A stretch of 64,000 nucleotides of DNA, taken from positions 1,367 to 65,366 of the forward strand of contig JAJCZM010000046.1 of NCBI GenBank assembly GCA_029262375.1, read 5' to 3'. The DNA comes from Deltaproteobacteria bacterium. GTDB lineage: Bacteria > Desulfobacterota > Binatia > UBA1149 > SPBQ01. How positions within the stretch are numbered: the first letter of the stretch is position 1; every line of letters starts with the position of its first letter. Of the stretch, positions 34,043 through 57,984 are shown in pieces. The notes beneath the pieces were generated by a model. It had not been told where the DNA came from. It saw only the letters and a list, made by a program, of their open reading frames with translations, and made no database searches. The position numbers were made by a program, and so were the translations under genes.

Positions 34043-35434
34043 TCAGTTCTCGCCAGTCAGACGATCGACGGCAGCCAGCAGGTTCTCGCACTGCTTGCGC
34101 ACACTGAAACCGGACTCCGCCAACCGCTGCGCATTCGCGCCCTTCGTCTGCTTCCAGTTCTCGCCGAGTGCGCGCGTGATCGTGGCGGCTAGAGAATCGG
34201 CCAACAGCTTACGATCGTCGGTCTCCGGTACGAGCGCCCCGACCTCGTCGGACACGAAGTCGCGTGGACCACCGGAATCCGCACCGATCACCGGTGTCCC
34301 GCAGGCCATGCATTCGATGAACACCAACCCGAACGGCTCCTTATAGGAAGGAAAACAGCCTACATCGGCGGTGTTGTACAACACCGCGAGCTCGTCTTGC
34401 GGACGCGGGCCCAAGAAGAAGACATTGCGCAGTCCCAGTTGCTCGTAAGCGAGATCTTGCATCTTCACCTGATCTTCGTGTGGCCCCGATCCCACGACCA
34501 ACGTCGCGACATTGCCAAGCTTCTCGTATTCGACGGCGGCCTGTAGCACGCAGTCCAGACGCTTCCAGTCGGCGAACTTGCCGCAGAATATGACGACCTT
34601 CTCGATACCGCCGTCGATCGCGACCGGACCGGCATTGCGTGAGCTCCCCTCGTACGGAGCGGTCGTGAAGCCGGCGAGCACATTGTCTCGGTCGGCGTAG
34701 AGATCCGTAGGAGTGTCGATGCGACGGAACGCCGAGTGGTTGTACCCGTTCGGAGATAGCACGACACGTTCCCGCGGAAATTCAGGGAAGATCTCGGCCA
34801 ACGCTTCGATCTGCTGGTTCGAGATCGCCGCGCACAAATCGACACCAACGCGGGAGCGATTGGAATAGTCGAAGACCCCGGATCGACGCATCATGGGCAA
34901 GAAGCGCTCAGGGAAGTGTTCGGGATCACGACCACCCTTCTCGTGCGCGAACATCTTCAGGGCGGTACCGTGCACGAAGCACAGGAGCGGGATGCGGCGC
35001 TTGCCCTCGGCTACCCGCGCCTCGAGCACATCGCTCAAAACGAGTGGGTTGAGAAAAGAGTGATGCGCAACCGCCAGTGAGAACTCCGCGTTCTCCTCGC
35101 GTTCGACGGCGTTCATATACTCGAGCACCTCTCGGGTCAGACGCGTGCGATAGGCCGCGAACTCCTCGTCGCTCATCGAGTGCCAGCGATACGAGCTGGT
35201 CGGCGAGATCGATTCGCAGATGGGAATGTCATGCTCGAGCTCAAAAACGCGCACGTCTGCGTCACGCGTCGTCTGCTTACTCGACGGATACATCGAATAG
35301 CTCGCCGTCCCCGCTAGATCGTTGTAGGCGAGGTGGTGCGACTCGTGCAGAATCCCTGACCCCGGCGCGTACTCGCCACCGCGTTGCCAGTTGTTCGTTC
35401 CGAGTTGAAAGATCAGTCTGCGCACCTTCGACAT
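34043..35434 (-). CDS. Glycosyltransferase family 4 (GT-B) with atypical N-terminal half
   Basis: C-terminal motif YKEPFGLVFIECMACGTPVIGADSGGPRDFV. The ATG is at 35434. Confidence 0.75.
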   Translation of the reverse strand: MSKVRRLIFQLGTNNWQRGGEYAPGSGILHESHHLAYNDLAGTASYSMYPSSKQTTRDADVRVFELEHDIPICESISPTSSYRWHSMSDEEFAAYRTRLTREVLEYMNAVEREENAEFSLAVAHHSFLNPLVLSDVLEARVAEGKRRIPLLCFVHGTALKMFAHEKGGRDPEHFPERFLPMMRRSGVFDYSNRSRVGVDLCAAISNQQIEALAEIFPEFPRERVVLSPNGYNHSAFRRIDTPTDLYADRDNVLAGFTTAPYEGSSRNAGPVAIDGGIEKVVIFCGKFADWKRLDCVLQAAVEYEKLGNVATLVVGSGPHEDQVKMQDLAYEQLGLRNVFFLGPRPQDELAVLYNTADVGCFPSYKEPFGLVFIECMACGTPVIGADSGGPRDFVSDEVGALVPETDDRKLLADSLAATITRALGENWKQTKGANAQRLAESGFSVRKQCENLLAAVDRLTGEN

Positions 35435-35614
35435 GAGCACCCCCGAGCGGCGCAGCCGGCCGCATCACGACATTCTACCAAACCGCCCCCTCAGCGGGGG
35501 CGTTTGCACTAATCCGGCGCTCGGGGCCGCGCAGGTCTTCGATCGCGCACATATATGTGCGACCCTAGGCAGATATCAGCGCGCTCCAACGAGCGCCGGG
35601 AGACCACCTACTGC

Positions 35615-36994
35615 ATGAAGCACCTGTTCACCGCCGCCCTCACTCTACTTCTTCTCGCCACAACATCTCTCACCGCCTCAGCGTCGAACTGCGGTCAGCC
35701 CGTCAGTGACGGCGACGCCCCGCGAGCCGTCGACGCGCTGCACATTCTGCGTTCCTCGGTCGGAGATCGTGATTGCACGCTCAGGGCCTGCGACGTAAAC
35801 GGCGACTGCCGCGTCAGTGCCGGCGATGCCCTGCGGACCCTGTCAGCTGCCGTGGGCTTCAACTCCGGCGGCTACTGCGACGCCGAATGCCCGGCCGAGA
35901 AACGCTGCGAATCCTCCGGCGCCCCCATGTGCAACGGCACGTGCCCCGCCGGTTACGTCTGCACGGCCGATCTCACCGACGAGGTCGAGCCGGACGTGCG
36001 CGCGACGATCTGCCACGTGCCGCCTGGGAACCCTGAGAACGCGCACAGTCTGCTCGTGGGACTCGATGCGGTTGCCGCTCACCTGGCACATGGAGACTAC
36101 CTCGGGCCCTGCGACAACGACGGCCGCTTCGAGGCCGATCACAAGCGCGACAAGGATCACGACAGCGACTCAGATTCCGACAGCGACAGCGACTCCGATT
36201 CTGACGACAACGAGTTCGTAGAGTGCATCTGCGAACCGCGCATGGTCTCCACGACGACGCTGCCGGTCGCAACGACGACCACGACGACGCTCGACGAGGC
36301 AACGACGACGACGACCACGACTACGACCTCGACCACACTCGAGGCCGGTGACGATTCGGACAACGACGGTCTCGGCGACGACGTCGATCCGTGTAACGAC
36401 GATGCTCGCAACGCCTGCTTCGGCGAGGCCGCCGTCGACGCAGCAACGGGGAACGTCATCCGCATCAATGCGAACCCCTCAACCAGCGACGAATGCGCGG
36501 GCGAGCGTGTCGATTGCAACGGGCAGACCTGGAACGCCGACTTCGGCTTCAACGACGCGGGCGACGGCAACGGCGCGTGCTCGCTAGGCGGCGGCGAGCC
36601 GAACTGTGTGATCACCGGAATCACAGAGATATTCGGGTGCGAAGACGATGCGACCGAAGATCTGCTGCAATGCGAGCACTTCGACCGACCGGCCGACCCG
36701 GAACTCAGATACTCCTTCAACGTGCCCAACGGCAGCTACCTCGTGAACCTCTTGTTCGCGAACACGTTCGAAGAAACGGCCGCGCCGGGCGCCCGCGTCT
36801 TCGCCATCACGGTCGAGGGCAATGTCGTTTACCCCGCGTTCGACCAGGTGGTCGCGGCGGGCGGCAGCGGGCGCGCGGTAGTGCGATCGGTTGTGGTTTC
36901 GGTCGACGACGGTGACGGTCTGTCGATCGAATTCGGGCACATCACACAAAACCCAAGCGTGAAAGCCATCGAAATTCTCGTGGCAACTCCATGA
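35615..36994 (+). CDS. Secreted modular protein with signal peptide, Cys-bracketed dockerin-like module, CHxPPGNP..AHLAHGD motif, SD-repeat, poly-Thr linker, TSP3-like Ca site and malectin-like domain
   Basis: Signal peptide MKHLFTAALTLLLLATTSLTASA. Dockerin-like CDVNGDCRVSAGDALRTLSAAVG. Linkers DSDSDSDSDSDSDSD and TTTTTTTTTS. TSP3-like DDSDNDGLGDDVDPC. Malectin-like IRINAN...YSFNVPNGSYLVNLLFANTF...GARVFAITVEGNVV...DGDGLSIEF...PSVKAIEIL. Confidence 0.8.
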   Translation: MKHLFTAALTLLLLATTSLTASASNCGQPVSDGDAPRAVDALHILRSSVGDRDCTLRACDVNGDCRVSAGDALRTLSAAVGFNSGGYCDAECPAEKRCESSGAPMCNGTCPAGYVCTADLTDEVEPDVRATICHVPPGNPENAHSLLVGLDAVAAHLAHGDYLGPCDNDGRFEADHKRDKDHDSDSDSDSDSDSDSDDNEFVECICEPRMVSTTTLPVATTTTTTLDEATTTTTTTTTSTTLEAGDDSDNDGLGDDVDPCNDDARNACFGEAAVDAATGNVIRINANPSTSDECAGERVDCNGQTWNADFGFNDAGDGNGACSLGGGEPNCVITGITEIFGCEDDATEDLLQCEHFDRPADPELRYSFNVPNGSYLVNLLFANTFEETAAPGARVFAITVEGNVVYPAFDQVVAAGGSGRAVVRSVVVSVDDGDGLSIEFGHITQNPSVKAIEILVATP

Positions 36995-37123: not shown

Positions 37124-38428
37124 ATGCAGAGAAATTTTGCCGCAGCCATCGTCTTCGAATGTCTGCTTGCGTGCTTCGTCACGCTCCTACATCCAACCCA
37201 CGGCCAAGCCGGCTGTGGCACTCCGGTGAGTGGACAGTCTTCGCCCCGGGCTACCGACGCGTTGCGCATCCTGAGCGCATCGGTGGGCACGTCGACTTGC
37301 ACGCTCGGGTCTTGCGACGTCAACCGCGACTGCGTCATCAGTGCCAGCGACGCACTCAACACGCTCCTGGCCGCGATCGGTACGCCTGCCATGCTCGATT
37401 GCAGCGCGGCCTGTCCGAGCCCGACGCCCTGCGAAAGCGCGGCCTCGAACATCTGCAACGGCACTTGCCCCTACGGCATGGCCTGCGCCGCTTCTGAGAG
37501 CAGCAGTCTGGCTCCCGACCCGCGTGTCACCGTCTGCCACGGTGTACCTCGGCGAACCTCCACCGTACCGCTCGGCGCGCTCGACGATCATCTTGCTCAC
37601 GGTGATGCCCTGCGCGCCTGTGAACAAGCGAATTCGCAAAGCGCTGCGCCCGTTCTCAGCAACTCGCTTGGCGGCGCCTCGGGCACGGTGAGTGCGTGCA
37701 GCTGCGTGGTGGTAGAGGTTCCCACTACCACCACCACCACCACGAGTACCTCGACATCCGTCACATTGCCGGCCGCTCCGGCCGACGACAGCGACAACGA
37801 CGGGCTCGTTGATAGCGAAGACCCCTGCCCCACCGAGCCACTCAACGAGTGTTTCGGCCACGTCGCCATCGACACGAGCACACAGTTGCCCGTACGTCTG
37901 AACGCCAATGCCGCCGACCTCACCGAATGCGGCGGCAACCGCATCGATTGCACCGGCCGCGTCTGGCTCGCCGACTTTGGCTACAACAAGCGATTCACCG
38001 GTTCGGATTGCGACATCAATATCGCCGGCCAAGGCTGCTCGATCAGGAACACGTCCGACATCTTCGGCTGCTCTAACAAATCGACGGAGGACGTTCTGCT
38101 CTGCGAGCACTTCGATCGTGCCCCCGAGCCAAACCTCATCTATTCCTTTAACGTCCCTAACGGCCGCTACCTGGTGAATTTCCTGTTCGCCAACACGTTC
38201 AAGGAAACTCGCACCGTGGGGAGCCGACTATTCAACGTCGCCATCGAGGGGGCGATCGTCCTGGAGAACTTCGACCAAGTCGCGACTGCCGGCGGTAGCC
38301 GGATCGCAATCGTTCGGTCTATCGTCGTAGAGATCTCCGACGGCGACGGAATGCAGATCGAATTCGGACATGTCGTCGAGAATCCGACGGTAAAGGCCAT
38401 CGAGATCCTCACTAATTCCGCCTTCTGA
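37124..38428 (+). CDS. Secreted dockerin-like + malectin-like protein (paralog of 35615-36994)
   Basis: Same order of modules as the upstream gene: CGTPVSGQSSPRATDALRILSASVG...CDVNRDCVISASDALNTLLAAIG, VCHGVP...DDHLAHGDALRAC, TTTTTTTSTSTS, DDSDNDGLVDSEDPC, VRLNAN...YSFNVPNGRYLVNFLFANTF...VKAIEIL. Confidence 0.8.
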   Translation: MQRNFAAAIVFECLLACFVTLLHPTHGQAGCGTPVSGQSSPRATDALRILSASVGTSTCTLGSCDVNRDCVISASDALNTLLAAIGTPAMLDCSAACPSPTPCESAASNICNGTCPYGMACAASESSSLAPDPRVTVCHGVPRRTSTVPLGALDDHLAHGDALRACEQANSQSAAPVLSNSLGGASGTVSACSCVVVEVPTTTTTTTSTSTSVTLPAAPADDSDNDGLVDSEDPCPTEPLNECFGHVAIDTSTQLPVRLNANAADLTECGGNRIDCTGRVWLADFGYNKRFTGSDCDINIAGQGCSIRNTSDIFGCSNKSTEDVLLCEHFDRAPEPNLIYSFNVPNGRYLVNFLFANTFKETRTVGSRLFNVAIEGAIVLENFDQVATAGGSRIAIVRSIVVEISDGDGMQIEFGHVVENPTVKAIEILTNSAF

Positions 38429-38700: not shown

Positions 38701-41310
38701 ATGCACAATTTGTTGCGCAAGATCATGACACTGACCGCCATTGCGGCAGTGATTACACTAACACTCGCTCCACGAGTCGAGGCCGCATGCGGCGACTTCG
38801 ACGGCAGCGGTTCGGTCACAGCGACCGATGCCCTGGGGATTCTGAGCACCGCGGTCGGCATCTCCGACTGTGCAATGGCTCGCTGCGATATCGATTCTAG
38901 TGGCGCCGTCACTGCAACCGATGCACTCGCGGTGCTTGGCAGCGCGGTTGGCCAGCCAATATCGCTGGTTTGCCCCGGAGTGGCGGTCACCCAAATCAGT
39001 GAGCTCCCTCGTGCCACAGGCGCGGTGGTTCCGGCTGACAACGCGGCCGGCTTTACCGCCAGCCTCGCCGAAGGTGATGCCCCGAGCGGTATTCTTCTGG
39101 GAGCGATCAGCGAGAACTTCGGAGCTGGGAGCTCAATGGCAGCTTGCCAGATCGCCAACATGACGAGCATTGCCATGACGTCGGCCGCCGAGGCCGACAA
39201 AATCCTTTGCTACATCCAAGCGGCATTCGACGGCATCGAGTCGCTCGAAGGCGGCACGATCGACATCTACGACGGCGAGTACCACACATTGGCACTCGAC
39301 ATCATCAACGATGACTTCGGTCCCGGCGGCCCGGGCGGTCCTGGCGGTCCAGGCGGCGGCGGTCCCAGCCTGATCAAGATGAAGCTCGAACGCAGCGGCG
39401 AGTCGATCACCGGCTTCGAACTGTTCGCATGCGAAGATCGCGACGGCGAGTCCGTTCAGAGCGAGTACATCAGCCAGAACATCAGCAGCACCGACTTCTC
39501 GATGGTCGCCAAAGGCCTGCGCGAAGACGACTGGGGCAGCAACGCCCACCAAGTCGTGGTCAACGGCGACCTCAATGACGCCGGCCTGTTCGTCGGCACC
39601 AAGCTGATCACGATGAGTTACTCGAGCGCATGGGGTGAGGAAGCCGAAGGCTATGGTCGCATGGTAGTCGGCCAAGGCGCCGGCACACTCGACCTTGACG
39701 GCTTCGATGCGGGATCGCACCAGAATCCTTTCGAGGACGAGGAACAGGTCTACTCGCACCGAGTAACCTCGGATGCAGAACTCTACGACCACAACGTTGC
39801 AGGCGACGACTACGAGATCGGCCTGCTGGCGATTGGCACGGGCGCGGCAAAGATCGGCTCGCGCCACGGTACGCGCTATTCCTGGCAAGACTTCACCGAG
39901 GTCGAAGGTTGGGACGGCGAGACCACGCTGATCGACTACGATCTCGCGGAAGCTTTCGTGGATCTCGTACTTGATACCGACCTGCCTGAGGTCGAGGACG
40001 TAGAAATCGCGTTCGCCGAAACGGAGTCTTTCGGCTGCGACGAGGCGCCCGAGGCCACCGTCACGATCGACATGGCGGTGACGCAGACGATGTGTAACCA
40101 CCTCGAACTCGAGAAGGAATGGTTCGACTGTTGGAACACAGTCAACGGTAACGGCGGTCCCGTCGGTGAGCCCGGCCCCGGCCCTGGTCCCGGTCCCGGC
40201 GACGGCGGCCCCCCGCTCTGCGAAGGTGAAGGCTGCAGTTGCTCCGAAGCCGGCATTTGCGGCGGACAAGCCCCCGGCGGTTGTTGGTGCGATGCGGCGT
40301 GCTTCGATAGCGGCGACTGCTGCTTCGATGCCTGCGACACCTGCGGGTCCTGCGGCGGCGGCGGCGGATGCCCGCCTGAAGACCCGAATTGTGGCGGCGG
40401 ATGCCCGCCCGAAGACCCGAACTGTGGCGGCGGCAAATGCGGCGACGGCTACTGCGAGGAGTGGGAAGACGGCTGGAACTGTCCGGAGGACTGCGGATTG
40501 CCTTGCGATCCTTCGGTCGATCCCGACTGTTTCCCGTCCTGCGACCCGAGTGTAGATCCCGACTGCTTCATGCCGTGTGAGCCTGGTGATCCGGAGTGCT
40601 TCCCGGGATGCCCGCCTGAGGACCCCGCTTGCGACGCCTACTTCTGCGGTGACGGCCTTTGCGACGTCGGCGAAGATGGTTGGAACTGTCCGGAAGATTG
40701 CGGTCAAGCCTGCCCTCCCGGCGACAGCAGCTGCGAGCCGCAGTGCAATCCGGACATCGACCCACAGTGTGCGCCCAGCGACTGCGGTGACGGTCACTGC
40801 GACGAGTACGAAGACGAGTGGAGTTGCCCGATGGACTGCAGCGACGGCACCGGTTGCGATCCGGCGACCGATCCGGATTGCGGCCCCCCGCCCTGCGGCG
40901 ATGGCTACTGCGATCCGGGCGAGGACGACTGGAGTTGCCCGATGGATTGCGGCGACGGCACCGGCTGCGATCCGGCGACCGATCCCAATTGCGGACCTCC
41001 GCCCTGCGGCGACGGGATCTGTGAGCCGGGCGAGGACGACTGGAGTTGCCCGAGCGACTGCAGCTTCGATCCGGGTTGCGATCCGGCGACCGATCCCAAC
41101 TGCGGTGTCGCGGCCTGCGGCGACGGCTACTGCGAGCCCGGTGAGGACGAGTTGAACTGCCCGAGCGATTGCAGCTTCGATCCGGGTTGCGATCCGGCGA
41201 CCGATCCCAACTGCGTACCGCCGCCTGCCGACCACTGCGGAGACGGCGTCTGCGATCCGGCATGGGATGAGGGGGAGGCCAACTGTCCGGTCGATTGCGG
41301 CCCGCAGTAG
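38701..41310 (+). CDS. Large secreted protein with a canonical-looking double dockerin-like module, an unassigned ~400-aa central region and a C-terminal array of Cys-rich mini-modules
   Basis: Signal peptide. CGDFDGSGSVTATDALGILSTAVG...CDIDSSGAVTATDALAVLGSAVG has two DxDxSGxxxxxD loops each followed by a DAL helix. GPGG/GPGP linkers are present. A GAGGGGG SD lies upstream. Confidence 0.8.
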   Translation: MHNLLRKIMTLTAIAAVITLTLAPRVEAACGDFDGSGSVTATDALGILSTAVGISDCAMARCDIDSSGAVTATDALAVLGSAVGQPISLVCPGVAVTQISELPRATGAVVPADNAAGFTASLAEGDAPSGILLGAISENFGAGSSMAACQIANMTSIAMTSAAEADKILCYIQAAFDGIESLEGGTIDIYDGEYHTLALDIINDDFGPGGPGGPGGPGGGGPSLIKMKLERSGESITGFELFACEDRDGESVQSEYISQNISSTDFSMVAKGLREDDWGSNAHQVVVNGDLNDAGLFVGTKLITMSYSSAWGEEAEGYGRMVVGQGAGTLDLDGFDAGSHQNPFEDEEQVYSHRVTSDAELYDHNVAGDDYEIGLLAIGTGAAKIGSRHGTRYSWQDFTEVEGWDGETTLIDYDLAEAFVDLVLDTDLPEVEDVEIAFAETESFGCDEAPEATVTIDMAVTQTMCNHLELEKEWFDCWNTVNGNGGPVGEPGPGPGPGPGDGGPPLCEGEGCSCSEAGICGGQAPGGCWCDAACFDSGDCCFDACDTCGSCGGGGGCPPEDPNCGGGCPPEDPNCGGGKCGDGYCEEWEDGWNCPEDCGLPCDPSVDPDCFPSCDPSVDPDCFMPCEPGDPECFPGCPPEDPACDAYFCGDGLCDVGEDGWNCPEDCGQACPPGDSSCEPQCNPDIDPQCAPSDCGDGHCDEYEDEWSCPMDCSDGTGCDPATDPDCGPPPCGDGYCDPGEDDWSCPMDCGDGTGCDPATDPNCGPPPCGDGICEPGEDDWSCPSDCSFDPGCDPATDPNCGVAACGDGYCEPGEDELNCPSDCSFDPGCDPATDPNCVPPPADHCGDGVCDPAWDEGEANCPVDCGPQ
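40200..41307 (+). repeat. Cys-rich repeat array with 7 copies of CGDGxCxxxE(D/E)xxxCPxDC, interleaved with CDPATDPxC, CDPSVDPDCF and CPPEDPNCGGG units
   Basis: Read from the translation: CGDGYCEEWEDGWNCPEDCG, CGDGLCDVGEDGWNCPEDCG, CGDGHCDEYEDEWSCPMDCS, CGDGYCDPGEDDWSCPMDCG, CGDGICEPGEDDWSCPSDCS, CGDGYCEPGEDELNCPSDCS, CGDGVCDPAWDEGEANCPVDCG. Confidence 0.85.
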
Positions 41311-41376
41311 CGCGCAACGAACTGAGAGGGGTGTAGCCATCGGCTTCCGAGCCGCCTGACTACCTAGCCCGCCAAC

Positions 41377-41432: not shown

Positions 41433-42578
41433 ATGCGCCGCGCCGGACGGACCGTAGTATTCCTCGTATTCCTGGTCGCGGCGGCGACCTGGTCATCGAG
41501 TTCGATGTTCGCTCTGGGCAACATCGTGCATCCCGACCGCCCTGTCATGGCGGTGACCGTTCCGAGCGCACTGGTCCGGCCCCTCAACACTCTCGCGATC
41601 CACAGCAGACGACCCCGCTCGATTTCCGTAGCGCTGCTGAGCGATTCGACGGCGATCGCTTACCCCGAGGGCAAGCGTATCCACGATCGCTTGTCGCAAA
41701 ATCTCGCCTCTCGCTGGACAGGCCGAGCATCCGTCTACGTTGCGTCGCTCAGTTCCTTGGGCATGACGCCGGCGGGCTTCTACCTCCTAGCCGATCCGAT
41801 CACGGCTGCGCATCCCGATGTCGCGATCGTGACCTTCAATCTCGGGCTGGCGCGTAGTCGGCTTGCCGCCAGCCTGCAGCGTCCCGAGTTGGCGGGCTGG
41901 GTGCTTGCGCGCCGCTGGTGGCAGACGCTGATTGAGCTCGACCTGCATAAATATGGTGTCACCGCAGACCGCCTTCTCCTGTACCGCCTCTTCGTGCTCA
42001 GCGGTCAGACAAGTCGCTGGCTCGAGCAGAGCTCGCAGCAGGCACGGCTGGGAGCTTTGCGCCAAGCGGTAGAACAACTGTTTGCAGATCGATTCGACTT
42101 CACGGGCGACCTCGCCGCACGCCGAGCGCGCGCGACGCTCACCTACATGGAGGAGATGGCGCCGGGTTTGCCCCCGCGTCGCAGCGCGCGAAGCGCACAA
42201 CGGTACTACAGCGAAGTCATGGACGGACTCAGCGAAGACCACTGGGTCGCCGAGATAACTCGCGCGCTACTACAACAACTCGCACGCGCCGGCACACAGA
42301 CAATTCTCTACGTTCCGCCCATCAATGTAGAGTACGCGAAGTCGCTCGGAGCTTACGATGAGGCCGGTATTGGGAGAACGCTCGCAATGCTCGAGCAGTT
42401 GGCGCTCGATACGGGAGCAGAGTTCGCCGACCTGCACGACTTACTTCCGGATGTAGCGTTTCGCGATACCGGCGGGCATTTCACGCACGAACCACCGTAC
42501 GACGGTCCACAACTGGTCGCTGAAGCCTTGACCCCGTACGTCGAGCTTCTGGTGCGAGACGTGTCCACGAATCGCTGA
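41433..42578 (+). CDS. Membrane-anchored SGNH/DltD/AlgJ-like putative O-acyltransferase partner
   Basis: N-terminal anchor. VALLSDSTA resembles block I (GDS) and RDTGGHFT resembles block V (DxxH). Its stop overlaps the MBOAT start by 1 nt. Start trimmed to 41433, downstream of the terminator. Confidence 0.5.
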   Translation: MRRAGRTVVFLVFLVAAATWSSSSMFALGNIVHPDRPVMAVTVPSALVRPLNTLAIHSRRPRSISVALLSDSTAIAYPEGKRIHDRLSQNLASRWTGRASVYVASLSSLGMTPAGFYLLADPITAAHPDVAIVTFNLGLARSRLAASLQRPELAGWVLARRWWQTLIELDLHKYGVTADRLLLYRLFVLSGQTSRWLEQSSQQARLGALRQAVEQLFADRFDFTGDLAARRARATLTYMEEMAPGLPPRRSARSAQRYYSEVMDGLSEDHWVAEITRALLQQLARAGTQTILYVPPINVEYAKSLGAYDEAGIGRTLAMLEQLALDTGAEFADLHDLLPDVAFRDTGGHFTHEPPYDGPQLVAEALTPYVELLVRDVSTNR

Positions 42579-44002
42579 TGCTTTTCAATACGCTACAGTA
42601 TGCGCTCTTCCTCGGCCTGGTGCTGCTCGGCCTACGCGTGCTTCCGGCGCGCATGCGCACCGGCTTACTGCTGGTGGCAAGCATCCTGTTTTACGCACTC
42701 TGGCTGCCGGCGTACCTGATCCTGCTACTGGTAGACCTCGGCGTGAACTATGCGTTGCTGCGCGCGATGCTCGTCGGCAAGCGACCGCGCGCGTACCTCA
42801 CGGCGTCGGTCGTGTTCACCCTCGGGCTACTCGCATGCTTCAAGTACGCCGCATTCGTGATCGAATCGCTGCTTGCCGTTCTTCCGGCCGTCGGACTGAG
42901 CGGTCTAGCGACCGCTTGGTCGCCCGATCTACCCGACTTCTTTTTGCCTCTCGGGATTTCCTTCTACAGTTTCCAGATGATCGCGCTCGCGGTGGACACG
43001 TATCGGCGCGACATCGAACCGGTAGAGAGCTTCTCTCGCTACGTGCTGTTCATTTCGTTCTTCCCGCAGCTCATCGCCGGGCCGATTCTACGCGGAGCGG
43101 AAATGCTGCCGCAGCTCGCGCGCGGCGGCGAGATGACACCGCAGCGCACGCGTCGTGGCGGCTGGCTGCTGGTGTCGGGGCTTCTCAAGAAAGTGGTGTT
43201 CGCAGACTATCTGCTCGCGCCGTTTGTCGACGATGCCTTCGGCGCACCCGCTGTCGGGTCGGCCGCGTATCACTTGATCGTAACGTACAGCTTCGCTTTT
43301 CAGATCTACTTCGATTTCTCCGGCTATGTAGACATGGCGCGAGGGTCGGCACTACTGATGGGCTTCGAGATCCCGACCAATTTTCTCGAGCCATACCTCT
43401 CGCGCAATCCGGCTGAGTTCTGGCGACGCTGGCACATCACGCTCTCCACTTGGTTGCGCGACTACCTCTACATAGCACTAGGCGGCAATCGTCTCTCGGC
43501 CGCACGAACCTACTTTAACCTGTTCGCAACGATGCTACTGGGCGGACTGTGGCACGGCGCCGCTTGGACGTTCGTCATTTGGGGCGGCCTGCACGGAGTC
43601 CTGCTGGCAGGCCATCGCCTGATGGGCGGAACCGCCGGCGACATCGATCGGCCGATCACGCTGCGCGACCTTCCGGGCCTGCTGTTCACCGCCCACGCAG
43701 CGGCACTTCTGTTCGCCGTGTTTCGGGCGCCAACGGTCGGCGACGCCGGTCTGTTCTTCTCGGGCTTCATGACCATGGACTTCCTGTCGGGATGGCCGGC
43801 GGTCCAGACGATCATCGTTGTGGTGTGTATCGGCTCGCATCTCGTCGAGCGCGCGGTTCGCCCCCGAGTGGGCCGACTCCAGCAACTAGCGGCCCACACG
43901 GCCTGGGGCCCTGCCGTAGAGGGCACGCTGGCCGGCCTACTGATCGGACTCGCCTACGCCGTTGCCGGCGCCGGCGGCGAGTTCATCTACTTCCAGTTTT
44001 AA
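42578..44002 (+). CDS. MBOAT family O-acyltransferase (AlgI/DltB/PatA-like)
   Basis: MLFNTLQYALFL..., FWRRWHITLSTWLRDYLYIALGGNR with the conserved His, and GGLWHGAAWTFVIWG. Confidence 0.9.
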   Translation: MLFNTLQYALFLGLVLLGLRVLPARMRTGLLLVASILFYALWLPAYLILLLVDLGVNYALLRAMLVGKRPRAYLTASVVFTLGLLACFKYAAFVIESLLAVLPAVGLSGLATAWSPDLPDFFLPLGISFYSFQMIALAVDTYRRDIEPVESFSRYVLFISFFPQLIAGPILRGAEMLPQLARGGEMTPQRTRRGGWLLVSGLLKKVVFADYLLAPFVDDAFGAPAVGSAAYHLIVTYSFAFQIYFDFSGYVDMARGSALLMGFEIPTNFLEPYLSRNPAEFWRRWHITLSTWLRDYLYIALGGNRLSAARTYFNLFATMLLGGLWHGAAWTFVIWGGLHGVLLAGHRLMGGTAGDIDRPITLRDLPGLLFTAHAAALLFAVFRAPTVGDAGLFFSGFMTMDFLSGWPAVQTIIVVVCIGSHLVERAVRPRVGRLQQLAAHTAWGPAVEGTLAGLLIGLAYAVAGAGGEFIYFQF

Positions 44003-56116: not shown

Positions 56117-57856
56117 TCAGTCGCTCTTGGCCTTGAACGACTCGCCTTCGTTCTTCCTCACGCCGACCCCGGAGAACGACGCCGACCAGCAGATTCCCGA
56201 ATCCGAATGCAGTTGAACCTCCACCGGAAGCGCCGTTGGAAGCGGCGGGAGCACCGGCAGCGTGAGCGCTTTGCCATCGGCTTTGAGCTTGAGCTTCGCC
56301 TTGGCATCGATGCCCACACCGAGTCTGAGCTGCGAGACCCCGTGCGGCGTCAGCAGCTTGTCCTTATATAGATAGCCCTTCGCGCCGGGCGGATTGCCTT
56401 TCGCGCGCCAGCAATCCTTCGAATTCGCACAGATGTCTCCGGCCGGGATTTCGGCTTCGAACACAATCGCAGGCGCGCCCGAGGTATCGAACACGCACAG
56501 CCTCAACGAATCGCTCACTGTGGGATCGCCGTAATCGGCGGCATCGGTCTGCTCGCCCACCCATCTGAAATCCAAGCGATCGAGCGTGTCGGGACTGCGA
56601 TCTCTGAACGAGAACTGTGCCTTGCCGGAAGCGAGGGGCTCTCTGCAATCGGCGCGCGGCACGACGATACCGGTGCACTCGCCCGCCCCATCGCACTCGC
56701 CTACGGCGCAAAGACTGCCTTCGAGCGCGCACGAGGTAGCGGCCGCCTCGACCGTGCAGTCGGCGGCGCAGCAATCGCCGTTGGTTCGATTGCCGTCGTC
56801 GCATTGCTCGCCGCAATCGAGTCGGCCATTGCCGCAGCCGAGCCACAGCGCCATCGCGTTGCCCTCCGCCTGGAAGTTCTCGGCCGGATCGTTCCACGGA
56901 TCGGCACCCTTATCGCCAAGCCAGCCATACGGATCGATCACGTTGGCAGCACTGGATTCCGGACTGCCCGCGGGCGGATGCCGCCGTACCTCGAAGTGCA
57001 GATGCGGCGCGAACGTGCCGAAGTTCCCGACGGTACCGACCTGCTGGCCGGCAACCACCGGCGCGCATTGCCCGACGAGTAGATCGGTCAGCGGGTTGCC
57101 GCCTGTATCGGTCCCCGCGAGATCGGCGGCGTGCAGGTACCACGACGCGTAGCCGTGATCTCCCACCACGCCATGGTCGATGTAGAACGTATGAAACTTC
57201 TCCCACCCGCTCGACGCACCGAAGTGACCGTTGATGGGGTCCTCCTGTGCCTTGCAGAGACTGCCGTCGGCGGTGGCCACGAGCGGCGTCCCCGCCTGGT
57301 AGCGATAGTCGTAGCCGGCGTGGCTCGCGTAACTGAGCACGCTCGGATTCGACAGCGCACCTTCGTAGTTCCCGTTGACCACGTACGAGGAGCCGTCGGC
57401 GCTGTAGTAGCCGCAGATGCACAGCGTGTTGAGAAAACACGCCGGGAAGTCGGGCTCCGCCGGGCACAGTTCATTGACGACACCGCGCTCGGCACTCTCG
57501 CCCGTGTAGGCCGTGATCTGCGTATCGCAGCAGCGTTGGTAGAACGGCCCGGTGTGATCCATCACCGAGATCATCGGCGCCGAGTACGCGTCTTGGCCGA
57601 GCCAGTCGACCGGAAACGCTGGAAGAATAAAGCCGTCGCCGCAAACACCCGAGTGGCATTGTTCCGGACCGGTACAAGGATCGGCGTCGTCGCAATCGTC
57701 GTTCGTCACGCAGGCCGGGCCGGCGTATGCCGGCGGCGCCCACAGCGCGGCCGGCTGAAGAACAGCCAACGCAAGGGCACCAACGACGGCGAGCATCTGC
57801 GCGACCTGCGCGCCCCGCACGATCCACGCTCTCCTTTTCAGGCTGGTCGGCCGCAT
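56117..57856 (-). CDS. Secreted M23 (LytM-type) metallopeptidase with Cys-rich N-terminal region, one Myxococcus-type Cys-rich repeat and the shared FKAKSD C-terminal domain
   Basis: HxxxD as SHAGYDY and HxH as APHLHFEV. Cys-rich repeat CGNGRLDCGEQCDDGNRTNGDCCAADC. The C-terminal ~177 aa are homologous to 48671-49207. The ATG is at 57856; the track used TTG 57859. Confidence 0.8.
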   Translation of the reverse strand: MRPTSLKRRAWIVRGAQVAQMLAVVGALALAVLQPAALWAPPAYAGPACVTNDDCDDADPCTGPEQCHSGVCGDGFILPAFPVDWLGQDAYSAPMISVMDHTGPFYQRCCDTQITAYTGESAERGVVNELCPAEPDFPACFLNTLCICGYYSADGSSYVVNGNYEGALSNPSVLSYASHAGYDYRYQAGTPLVATADGSLCKAQEDPINGHFGASSGWEKFHTFYIDHGVVGDHGYASWYLHAADLAGTDTGGNPLTDLLVGQCAPVVAGQQVGTVGNFGTFAPHLHFEVRRHPPAGSPESSAANVIDPYGWLGDKGADPWNDPAENFQAEGNAMALWLGCGNGRLDCGEQCDDGNRTNGDCCAADCTVEAAATSCALEGSLCAVGECDGAGECTGIVVPRADCREPLASGKAQFSFRDRSPDTLDRLDFRWVGEQTDAADYGDPTVSDSLRLCVFDTSGAPAIVFEAEIPAGDICANSKDCWRAKGNPPGAKGYLYKDKLLTPHGVSQLRLGVGIDAKAKLKLKADGKALTLPVLPPLPTALPVEVQLHSDSGICWSASFSGVGVRKNEGESFKAKSD

Positions 57857-57984
57857 CAAGTCGAGAGTGAATCGCCGAGGCAGTCTAAGTCAAGATGGGA
57901 TCGTGCCTTGCGAATCCCGACGGCGCCTCACATGGTGGCGCGAACGCGGACCCAAGCGGGCCAACCGAGGCGCGACGAGACGAA

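Follow-up and report, generated by a model that had tools for sequence, protein, structure and literature searches.

A mosaic cysteine-rich tail on a probably secreted dockerin protein from a Binatia genome

We analysed a 64,000-nucleotide stretch of DNA (the window) from contig JAJCZM010000046.1 of a Deltaproteobacteria bacterium of the class Binatia, in which a forward-strand gene encodes P0001, an 869-residue protein that ends in an array of short cysteine-rich units. The contig belongs to a metagenome-assembled genome that comprises 59 contigs and 4.8 Mb and is 87% complete. From its N-terminus, P0001 consists of a probable signal peptide, a dockerin, an unassigned middle domain, a Gly/Pro linker and the Cys-rich tail, after which comes the stop codon. 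Sequence comparison indicates that this tail is a mosaic of three layers, namely a somatomedin-B-like (SMB-like) cysteine knot, two-Cys loops specific to one protein family, and a widespread four-Cys module that we refer to as the CGDG module. The initial annotation of this DNA had placed a Cys-module array at the end of an 869-residue protein, and both the open reading frame (ORF) and its seven units were recovered. It had also taken the array for a single new repeat. The uncatalogued module survives from that description; the view of the tail as one thing gives way to the three-layer mosaic, whose SMB-like knot had been overlooked. The features of the gene are given below in window coordinates.

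38701..41310, forward strand: gene for the 869-residue secreted protein P0001, called as an ORF, with a homologue (P0015) and a GC content at third codon positions (GC3) of 0.74, like that of its neighbours
38701..38787, forward strand: residues 1-29, probably a signal peptide, with ...APRVEA at its end and A as the following residue, read from the sequence
38791..38934, forward strand: Dockerin type I, residues 31-78, with Cys on both sides (PF00404, 27.2 bits; gathering cut-off 22.9)
38971..40149, forward strand: middle domain of ~390 residues (91-483), the conserved family core, from homologue alignment
40219..40353, forward strand: somatomedin-B-like Cys knot, residues 507-551, CEGEGCSCSEAGICGGQAPGGCWCDAACFDSGDCCFDACDTCGSC, from a seven-copy family profile compared with ENPP1 SMB1
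40369..40425, forward strand: two CPPEDPNC two-Cys loops with GGG linkers, a 33-nt unit present twice at 94% identity
40438..40494, forward strand: CGDG module 1, CGDGYCEEWEDGWNCPEDC, closest to module 2 of P0001 in a comparison of 1,136 modules
40504..40632, forward strand: four two-Cys loops, CDPSVDPDC twice, CEPGDPEC and CPPEDPAC
40645..40701, forward strand: CGDG module 2, CGDGLCDVGEDGWNCPEDC, with an EDGWNCP motif common to the single module of P0015
40711..40770, forward strand: two degenerate loops, CPPGDSSC and CNPDIDPQC
40783..41226, forward strand: four tandem super-units of 111 nt (37 codons), from Tandem Repeats Finder (TRF) and pairwise identity
41236..41298, forward strand: CGDG module 7, CGDGVCDPAWDEGEANCPVDC, a variant whose middle gap measures 10 residues; 3 residues further on the protein stops
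39133..41340, reverse strand: spurious 735-residue antisense ORF, with GC by codon position of 0.76/0.54/0.64, the mirror of the sense frame

The last 369 residues of P0001 contain 64 Cys, 62 Asp, 59 Gly and 59 Pro. The tail is therefore Cys-rich as originally described, with 64 Cys in place of the ~70 that had been counted in the last ~370 residues. Residues 556-869 carry 79 acidic residues against a single basic one, which gives a net charge of about -78 over 314 residues, and 17% of the residues in this segment are Cys. There are seven CGDGxC...CPxDC units, beginning at residues 580, 649, 695, 732, 769, 806 and 846 (nt 40438, 40645, 40783, 40894, 41005, 41116 and 41236). Six of them have the canonical 19-residue spacing and the seventh has a middle gap of 10 residues instead of 8, so that the seven units first reported are confirmed as six exact copies plus one longer-gap variant. 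Interleaved with the modules are eleven two-Cys loops of the form CxP(x1-3)DPxC and one degenerate loop, CPPGDSSC. The spacer repeats were found as first stated (CDPATDP(D/N)C four times, CDPSVDPDC twice and CPPEDPNC twice), together with the further kinds CPPEDPAC, CEPGDPEC, CNPDIDPQC and the degenerate CPPGDSSC. Each super-unit is built from a CGDG module, a 5-residue linker, a CDPATDP(D/N)C loop and a 3-residue linker, with module starts at nt 40783, 40894, 41005 and 41116 and loop starts at 40855, 40966, 41077 and 41188. TRF reported this repeat with a period of 111 nt and 3.8 copies (40809-41225, 83% matches). Across the 4.8-Mb genome, the DNA pattern for CGDGxC[DE] was found seven times, always within the P0001 gene, and the reversed control gave 0 matches. 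Since all seven genome matches fall in one gene against none in the control, the array lies beyond chance.

The CGDG module extends far beyond this locus. The consensus from 275 canonical 19-mers in 37 proteins is C-G-[DN]-G-x-C-x3-E-x4-C-P-x-D-C, in which the Glu at position 10 (E10) is present in 271/275 and the Asp at position 18 (D18) in 275/275 modules, neither residue having been demanded by the regular expression. The P0001 units conform to this definition (C-x4-C-x8-C-x3-C with G2, D/N3, G4, E10, P16 and D18; six of the seven exactly) and, when aligned with 103 foreign double modules, match them column by column. With the P0001 tail as the query, 33 otherwise unrelated module-bearing proteins were retrieved, at E-values down to 4.9e-19. 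A double-module profile run with hmmsearch against 1.84 billion cluster representatives returned 7,967, 3,307 and 602 matches at E ≤ 1e-3, 1e-10 and 1e-30, respectively. We also scanned one genome per GTDB species with a degenerate DNA pattern, which gave at least 120 stretches. Among the matches listed (L004-L083), bacteria were represented by Myxococcota (most numerous), Sorangium, unclassified 'Deltaproteobacteria', Planctomycetota/Phycisphaerae, Anaerolineae, Acidobacteriota, Bacteroidota, Spirochaetia, Patescibacteria and Gracilibacteria, and archaea by Woese-, Micr-, Iain-, Nano-, Nanohalo- and Altiarchaeota (DPANN included), Methanosarcinales and Nitrososphaeria. The exact DNA pattern of the module was also present in 17 viral or proviral contigs of IMG/VR (L133-L149), in up to 4 tandem copies.

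The company that the module keeps is equally varied. Pfam partners among 70 strong module matches were SMB (6), trypsin (5), RCC1 (2) and DUF4215 (2), and partners seen once included an archaeal class III signal peptide, peptidases of the M64 and reprolysin kinds, FGE-sulfatase, laminin-G, PKD, Hint and SpvB among others. In 169 proteins with at least 3 modules, the array started within the first 80 residues in 61 cases, was C-terminal in 22 and lay upstream of a hydrophobic anchor in 31. Judged from these architectures, the module is a position-independent and promiscuous building block of exported bacterial and archaeal proteins. All four Cys are kept in 749 of 755 module-like segments, and there are two double Cys losses that retain a pair, one keeping C1 and C3 and the other C2 and C4; these co-losses weakly hint at a C1-C3/C2-C4 disulfide pairing. 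The mean net charge per 19-residue module is -3.55 in general and -6.3 in P0001. This acidity and the near-invariant E10 and D18 would be compatible with cation binding; binding of Ca had been suggested at the outset.

When the whole of P0001, its tail and many module-rich homologues were searched, no Pfam-A or NCBIfam model lay over the module. The original description of the repeat as unassigned, with no named profile, thus holds for these two libraries. A PDB sequence search with the tail and the module profile returned nothing useful, the zinc-finger linker matches being attributed to chance, and a literature search with the module motif strings or with Binatia, dockerin and cysteine-rich as terms returned nothing relevant. 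AlphaFold2 (AF2) was run on two super-units with a 107-row module alignment and reached a predicted local distance difference test score (pLDDT) of 67.6 overall, with a moderate 72-79 in the modules and ~60 in the loops. The helical turn at CPxDC was the only secondary structure in this model, and a Foldseek search with it against the PDB gave 0 matches.

Among named families, the Myxococcus cysteine-rich repeat (PF13948, DUF4215), which we take to be TIGR02232, resembles the CGDG module in being small, acidic and extracellular, with four Cys, a CG[DN]G start, Glu at position 10 that is often preceded by Gly at position 9, and a C-x3-C ending. The two differ in spacing, which is C-x4-C-x8-C-x3-C in 19 residues for the CGDG module and C-x10-C-x10-C-x3-C in ~27 residues for the Myxococcus repeat, and the CDDGN core that closes the CG[ND]G-xx-[ED]-x-G-E-x-CDDGN motif of the latter is absent from the former. 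Alignment of the module with DUF4215 by hhalign covered the first 13 columns only (CG[DN]G....E) at a probability of 64%, and a distant kinship of the two N-terminal halves is possible, short of membership. PF13948 gave nothing at E ≤ 1 on the P0001 tail (gathering cut-off 27 bits) and nothing on proteins with 8-21 CGDG modules. As a positive control, the same model scored 79 bits on this genome's own Myxococcus-type repeats, and it matched just 2/70 CGDG-array proteins, in both via separate repeats. With PF13948 silent on the tail and 79 bits on the control, the early judgement that this repeat is distinct from the Myxococcus-type CGNG..E.CDDGN stands. Myxococcus-type repeats occur in 35 ORFs of the genome. 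Within the window, the one DUF4215-type repeat, LGCGNGRLDCGEQCDDGNRTNGDCCAADC, lies in a 580-residue secreted protein (56117-57859, reverse strand), which also has an HLHFE motif that recalls M23 peptidases.

NF033662 (acid_disulf_rpt) is likewise an acidic, four-Cys, bacterial and extracellular repeat, of ~30 residues, and its ...DC.DPDC ending is loosely like the CDPxxDPxC loops of P0001. Its motif, C.DG.DNDGDG..DC.D.DC, differs from that of the CGDG module. No NF033662 match was obtained at E ≤ 10 on the P0001 tail or on a 298-residue CGDG run (cut-off 41 bits), and in the control protein P0052 the 93-bit match was confined to separate DNDGDG..DC.DPDC units. In P0052 (residues 48-280 and ~690-715), the NF033662 repeat occurs alongside ~20 CGDG-type modules, so that two distinct acidic four-Cys repeats are used side by side in one protein.

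LDL-receptor class A (LDLa), Notch LNR, calcium-binding EGF (cbEGF) and thrombospondin type 3 (TSP3) are tiny Ca-binding disulfide modules with a conserved acidic cluster, repeated and position-independent. The CGDG module is like them in its small size, its extracellular setting, its combination of probable disulfides with conserved acidic residues and its position-independent repetition; it differs in having four Cys and a shorter chain, whereas the animal modules have six Cys. Membership in LDLa, LNR or EGF was rejected on the strength of no Pfam or PDB match with the tail or the module profile, and TSP3 was not matched either. A metallothionein was rejected because P0001 looks exported and its Cys pattern differs, and a precursor of a ribosomally synthesized and post-translationally modified peptide because there is no maturase in the 64-kb window. 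The CGDG module belongs among the small extracellular disulfide repeats, which are already a known kind. It is not unique to the P0001 locus, and its role is probably structural.

The knot is confined to the opening 45 residues of the tail, apart from the CGDG repeat. Residues 507-551 follow an eight-Cys pattern, C..C..C.C.D..C..CC.D..C, which is invariant in seven copies from the family. A profile of these seven copies aligned with ENPP1 SMB1 across the SMB Cys pattern at E=0.048. The Pfam model PF01033 gave weak, sub-cut-off matches in 6/7 family copies (best E 0.057; one at 14.1 bits, against a cut-off of 23.1) and no match to the knot copy of P0001 itself. We describe residues 507-551 as SMB-like, a resemblance that falls below the Pfam SMB cut-off. 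Compared with the SMB domain of vitronectin, ENPP1/2 and EndoU, the P0001 knot has the same Cys pattern and extra flanking Cys, 12 in 45 residues. Genuine SMB domains, the commonest Pfam partner, accompany CGDG arrays in the six proteins of 70 counted above and also in P0005, P0022 and P0055. In some homologues of P0001 a second copy of the knot is found at the C-terminus.

The homologues were identified through the middle domain. An alignment search found 12 of them, one named 'Candidatus Binatia', and the domain is present in 12/31 genomes of the order and in 0/30 from the rest of the class. P0015 is 51% identical to P0001 over 652 residues. The cores of the homologues are 40-55% identical, and their tails are entirely different, with 0-1 CGDG modules: P0038 has a knot, 6 loops and another knot, P0015 a knot, loops, one CGDG module and another knot, and P0039 loops only. 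In P0040 (L002 8001-9911) the tail is an unrelated ~50-residue Cys unit present three times, CEQGPDCAPDGFCDGPNCCGGPDCGGDGVCTGPDCCQ...; next after P0040 comes an M9 collagenase that bears a dockerin. Three paralogues occur in the present genome. The one at C15:40181-41401 has a middle domain 46% identical to that of P0001 and beyond it just an SMB-like knot with a tail that is short and acidic, and the one at C51:127444-128619 has a 42% identical middle domain and no Cys tail. Arrays of CDPxxDPxC loops were found in 6/31 genomes of the order, nearly all of them in or directly after homologue genes, and 300 other genomes of the phylum yielded five single, chance-level matches. By this distribution, the loops are a native tail element of the middle-domain family. 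The homologue in genome G014 (L132, G014:C83, 1459-4986) has 13 such loops; it adjoins a gene for a copper-type P-type ATPase (YHS and HMBD) and a radical SAM gene, an arrangement not conserved at the other loci. In this dockerin protein family, which is specific to its lineage, the Cys tail is the part that evolves fast and can be dispensed with.

The divergence among the super-units allowed us to place the array in time. In pairwise comparison the super-units share 73-84% of their DNA bases, and dS is 0.57-1.30 and dN/dS 0.14-0.41. Since synonymous sites are near saturation, the copies are old, and they have been kept by purifying selection; the recent unit duplication proposed earlier is not borne out by these values. 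For each of the six canonical modules, the nearest neighbour among 1,136 modules lies within P0001 itself. Trp at position 13 is found in 5/6 canonical copies in P0001 and in the single module of P0015, compared with 15/1,130 modules elsewhere. Because the relatives have 0-1 modules and the copies are mutually closest, the seven copies point to amplification in place: in P0001, one ancestral module and its adjacent loop were, on this evidence, amplified in tandem to seven copies. The longest exact repeat in the array region is 46 nt, and the divergence of the super-units makes a repeat collapse in the assembly unlikely.

The sense frame has a codon-position GC of 0.64/0.54/0.74, and GC3 in the neighbouring genes is 0.75-0.79. 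The 735-residue antisense ORF had been called spurious at the outset, a call borne out by its codon-position GC, which mirrors that of the sense frame, and by the homologues and the Pfam domain of the sense frame. It is a by-product of the GC-rich repeat, and a coding antisense ORF was rejected because its codon-position GC only mirrors the sense frame. The N-terminus of P0001 has a basic start, a hydrophobic core and an AxA-like site, and it aligns in 5 homologues with variable residues; export via an N-terminal signal peptide is probable. For the middle domain, sequence and profile searches gave no Pfam, NCBIfam or PDB match. In larger proteins with pieces of this domain, a dockerin was the only domain found, with no clue to function. 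AF2 of full-length P0001 with a 5-row alignment gave a pLDDT of 35.7, an unusable model from which no middle-domain fold could be taken.

We interpret the last ~315 residues of the tail as an extracellular, disulfide-stapled and strongly polyanionic rod that extends a dockerin-bearing secreted protein, and we assign this reading a probability of roughly 0.55. A pair of disulfides, probably C1-C3 and C2-C4, would be closed within each CGDG module and a single one within each loop, and about 26 would be expected in residues 556-869. E10, D18 and D/N3 would stabilise the tiny fold, possibly via Ca2+, and the Pro/Gly linkers would hold the chain extended. The tail would in this way add length, stiffness, protease resistance and a charge of about -78 at the end distal to the dockerin, as an accessory to the conserved core with no catalytic part of its own. 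Several points weigh against the rod. The disulfide pairing is weakly hinted at by two anecdotal cases of co-loss, and strict anaerobes, for which disulfides outside the cell are a less safe assumption, also have the module. There is no confident three-dimensional model of the tail (pLDDT 67.6, Foldseek empty). The number of seven copies is taken from the assembly alone. Finally, the array is a free C-terminus without an anchor, and a stalk normally joins two things; because the array ends freely, its topology suits a tip that binds or cross-links no less well.

Such a tip is the first of the alternatives, and we hold it to be unlikely. Here the tail would serve recognition or adhesion, binding a surface, a polysaccharide or a partner protein with the SMB-like knot and the modules as its binding face. 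The position of the array at the free C-terminus and the sharp differences between tails on cores that are 40-55% identical are what a tip would lead one to expect. In eukaryotes the SMB domain is a module that binds proteins, and no other Pfam domain accompanies CGDG arrays as often. Two neighbouring genes also encode proteins that combine a dockerin with malectin, which is carbohydrate-binding. However, the array copies are under purifying and not diversifying selection (dN/dS 0.14-0.41), the occurrence of the module at all positions in unrelated proteins speaks more for a generic scaffold than for a specific binder, and one paralogue manages without a tail.

Lower still in our estimate, and doubtful, is a cation sponge, in which the binding of Ca2+ or metal would itself be the function, through carboxylates or through reduced thiolates in the manner of a metallothionein. 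A stretch of 314 residues with a net charge of about -78 and a Cys content of 17% would suit it, as would the near-invariance of E10, D18 and D/N3 and the copper-type P-type ATPase beside the G014 homologue. Yet that metal-pump neighbour is not kept at other loci, and no metal-related gene lies near the P0001 gene in the window. P0001 moreover looks exported and has a conserved four-Cys spacing in place of the CxC/CC motifs of metallothioneins. We also entertain, as improbable, that the CGDG module is an undescribed Ca2+-dependent disulfide mini-fold in use throughout Bacteria and Archaea, and that in these bacteria without cohesin the dockerin proteins assemble via cations into a surface matrix by means of their hypervariable, extremely acidic Cys tails. 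If true, this would be a cell-surface assembly principle unlike the cohesin-dockerin docking of cellulosomes.

A dockerin-like motif occurs in 64 ORFs of the genome, and the search for cohesin (PF00963) gave 0 matches in the 87%-complete genome, so that no cellulosome-type partner was found. So many dockerin-motif ORFs without a cohesin call for some other assembly principle, which is a point in favour of a covalent matrix former, a reading that we nevertheless consider very unlikely. The terminal Cys modules would then reshuffle into intermolecular disulfides and build a surface or biofilm layer, by analogy with the minicollagen cysteine-rich domains of nematocysts. The high Cys and Pro content, the terminal position and the many copies agree with this picture; closed intramodular pairs are suggested instead by the even number of Cys in each unit and by the 749/755 segments that keep all four, and cross-linking is without direct support. 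That the tail is an artefact, either a mis-assembled repeat or a non-coding low-complexity stretch, is barely credible, for all that the metagenome-assembled genome comprises 59 contigs and the region holds a 46-nt exact repeat, since 16-27% of bases, for the most part synonymous, differ between copies, the gene has 869 open codons with gene-like GC3, and the architecture is common to homologues from independent assemblies.

The module is found in thousands of exported protein clusters and is absent from Pfam-A and NCBIfam, with no solved structure, which makes it a gap in curation. Curation and a structure would improve the annotation of 'hypothetical' surface proteins and settle the question of a Ca-binding fold. 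The module is also a potential compact, disulfide-stapled spacer for protein engineering. The P0001 locus itself reveals no new mechanism; what gives the finding its value is the prospect of curating the family and of obtaining a first structure. It is at the same time a clean natural example of array growth, in which a module and a loop were amplified as a 37-codon unit and then selectively kept.

The surroundings of the P0001 gene comprise the following features.

34043-35440, reverse strand: GT4 glycosyltransferase gene, divergent and upstream
35555-36994 and 37124-38428, forward strand: two genes for dockerin-like and malectin proteins with signal peptides, preceding the P0001 gene
41374-41406, forward strand: terminator-like hairpin with a 14-bp stem (10 G-C pairs) and a T-run, 64 nt past the stop codon
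41382-42578, forward strand: SGNH/GDSL-like ORF (weak match), whose stop codon ends at the MBOAT start
42578-44002, forward strand: MBOAT O-acyltransferase gene

Together with the two genes upstream, the P0001 gene forms a trio encoding dockerin-first secreted proteins, and the GT4, SGNH-like and MBOAT genes make this a polysaccharide-modification neighbourhood. As a clue to the function of P0001, the gene neighbourhood was rejected because the contexts of three homologous loci differ. The hairpin downstream of P0001 probably ends the transcription unit; it is a match to the consensus only, and 1.8 such matches are expected in shuffled sequence of the region. It overlaps the listed GTG start (41382) of the downstream ORF, and the true start of that gene probably lies further downstream.

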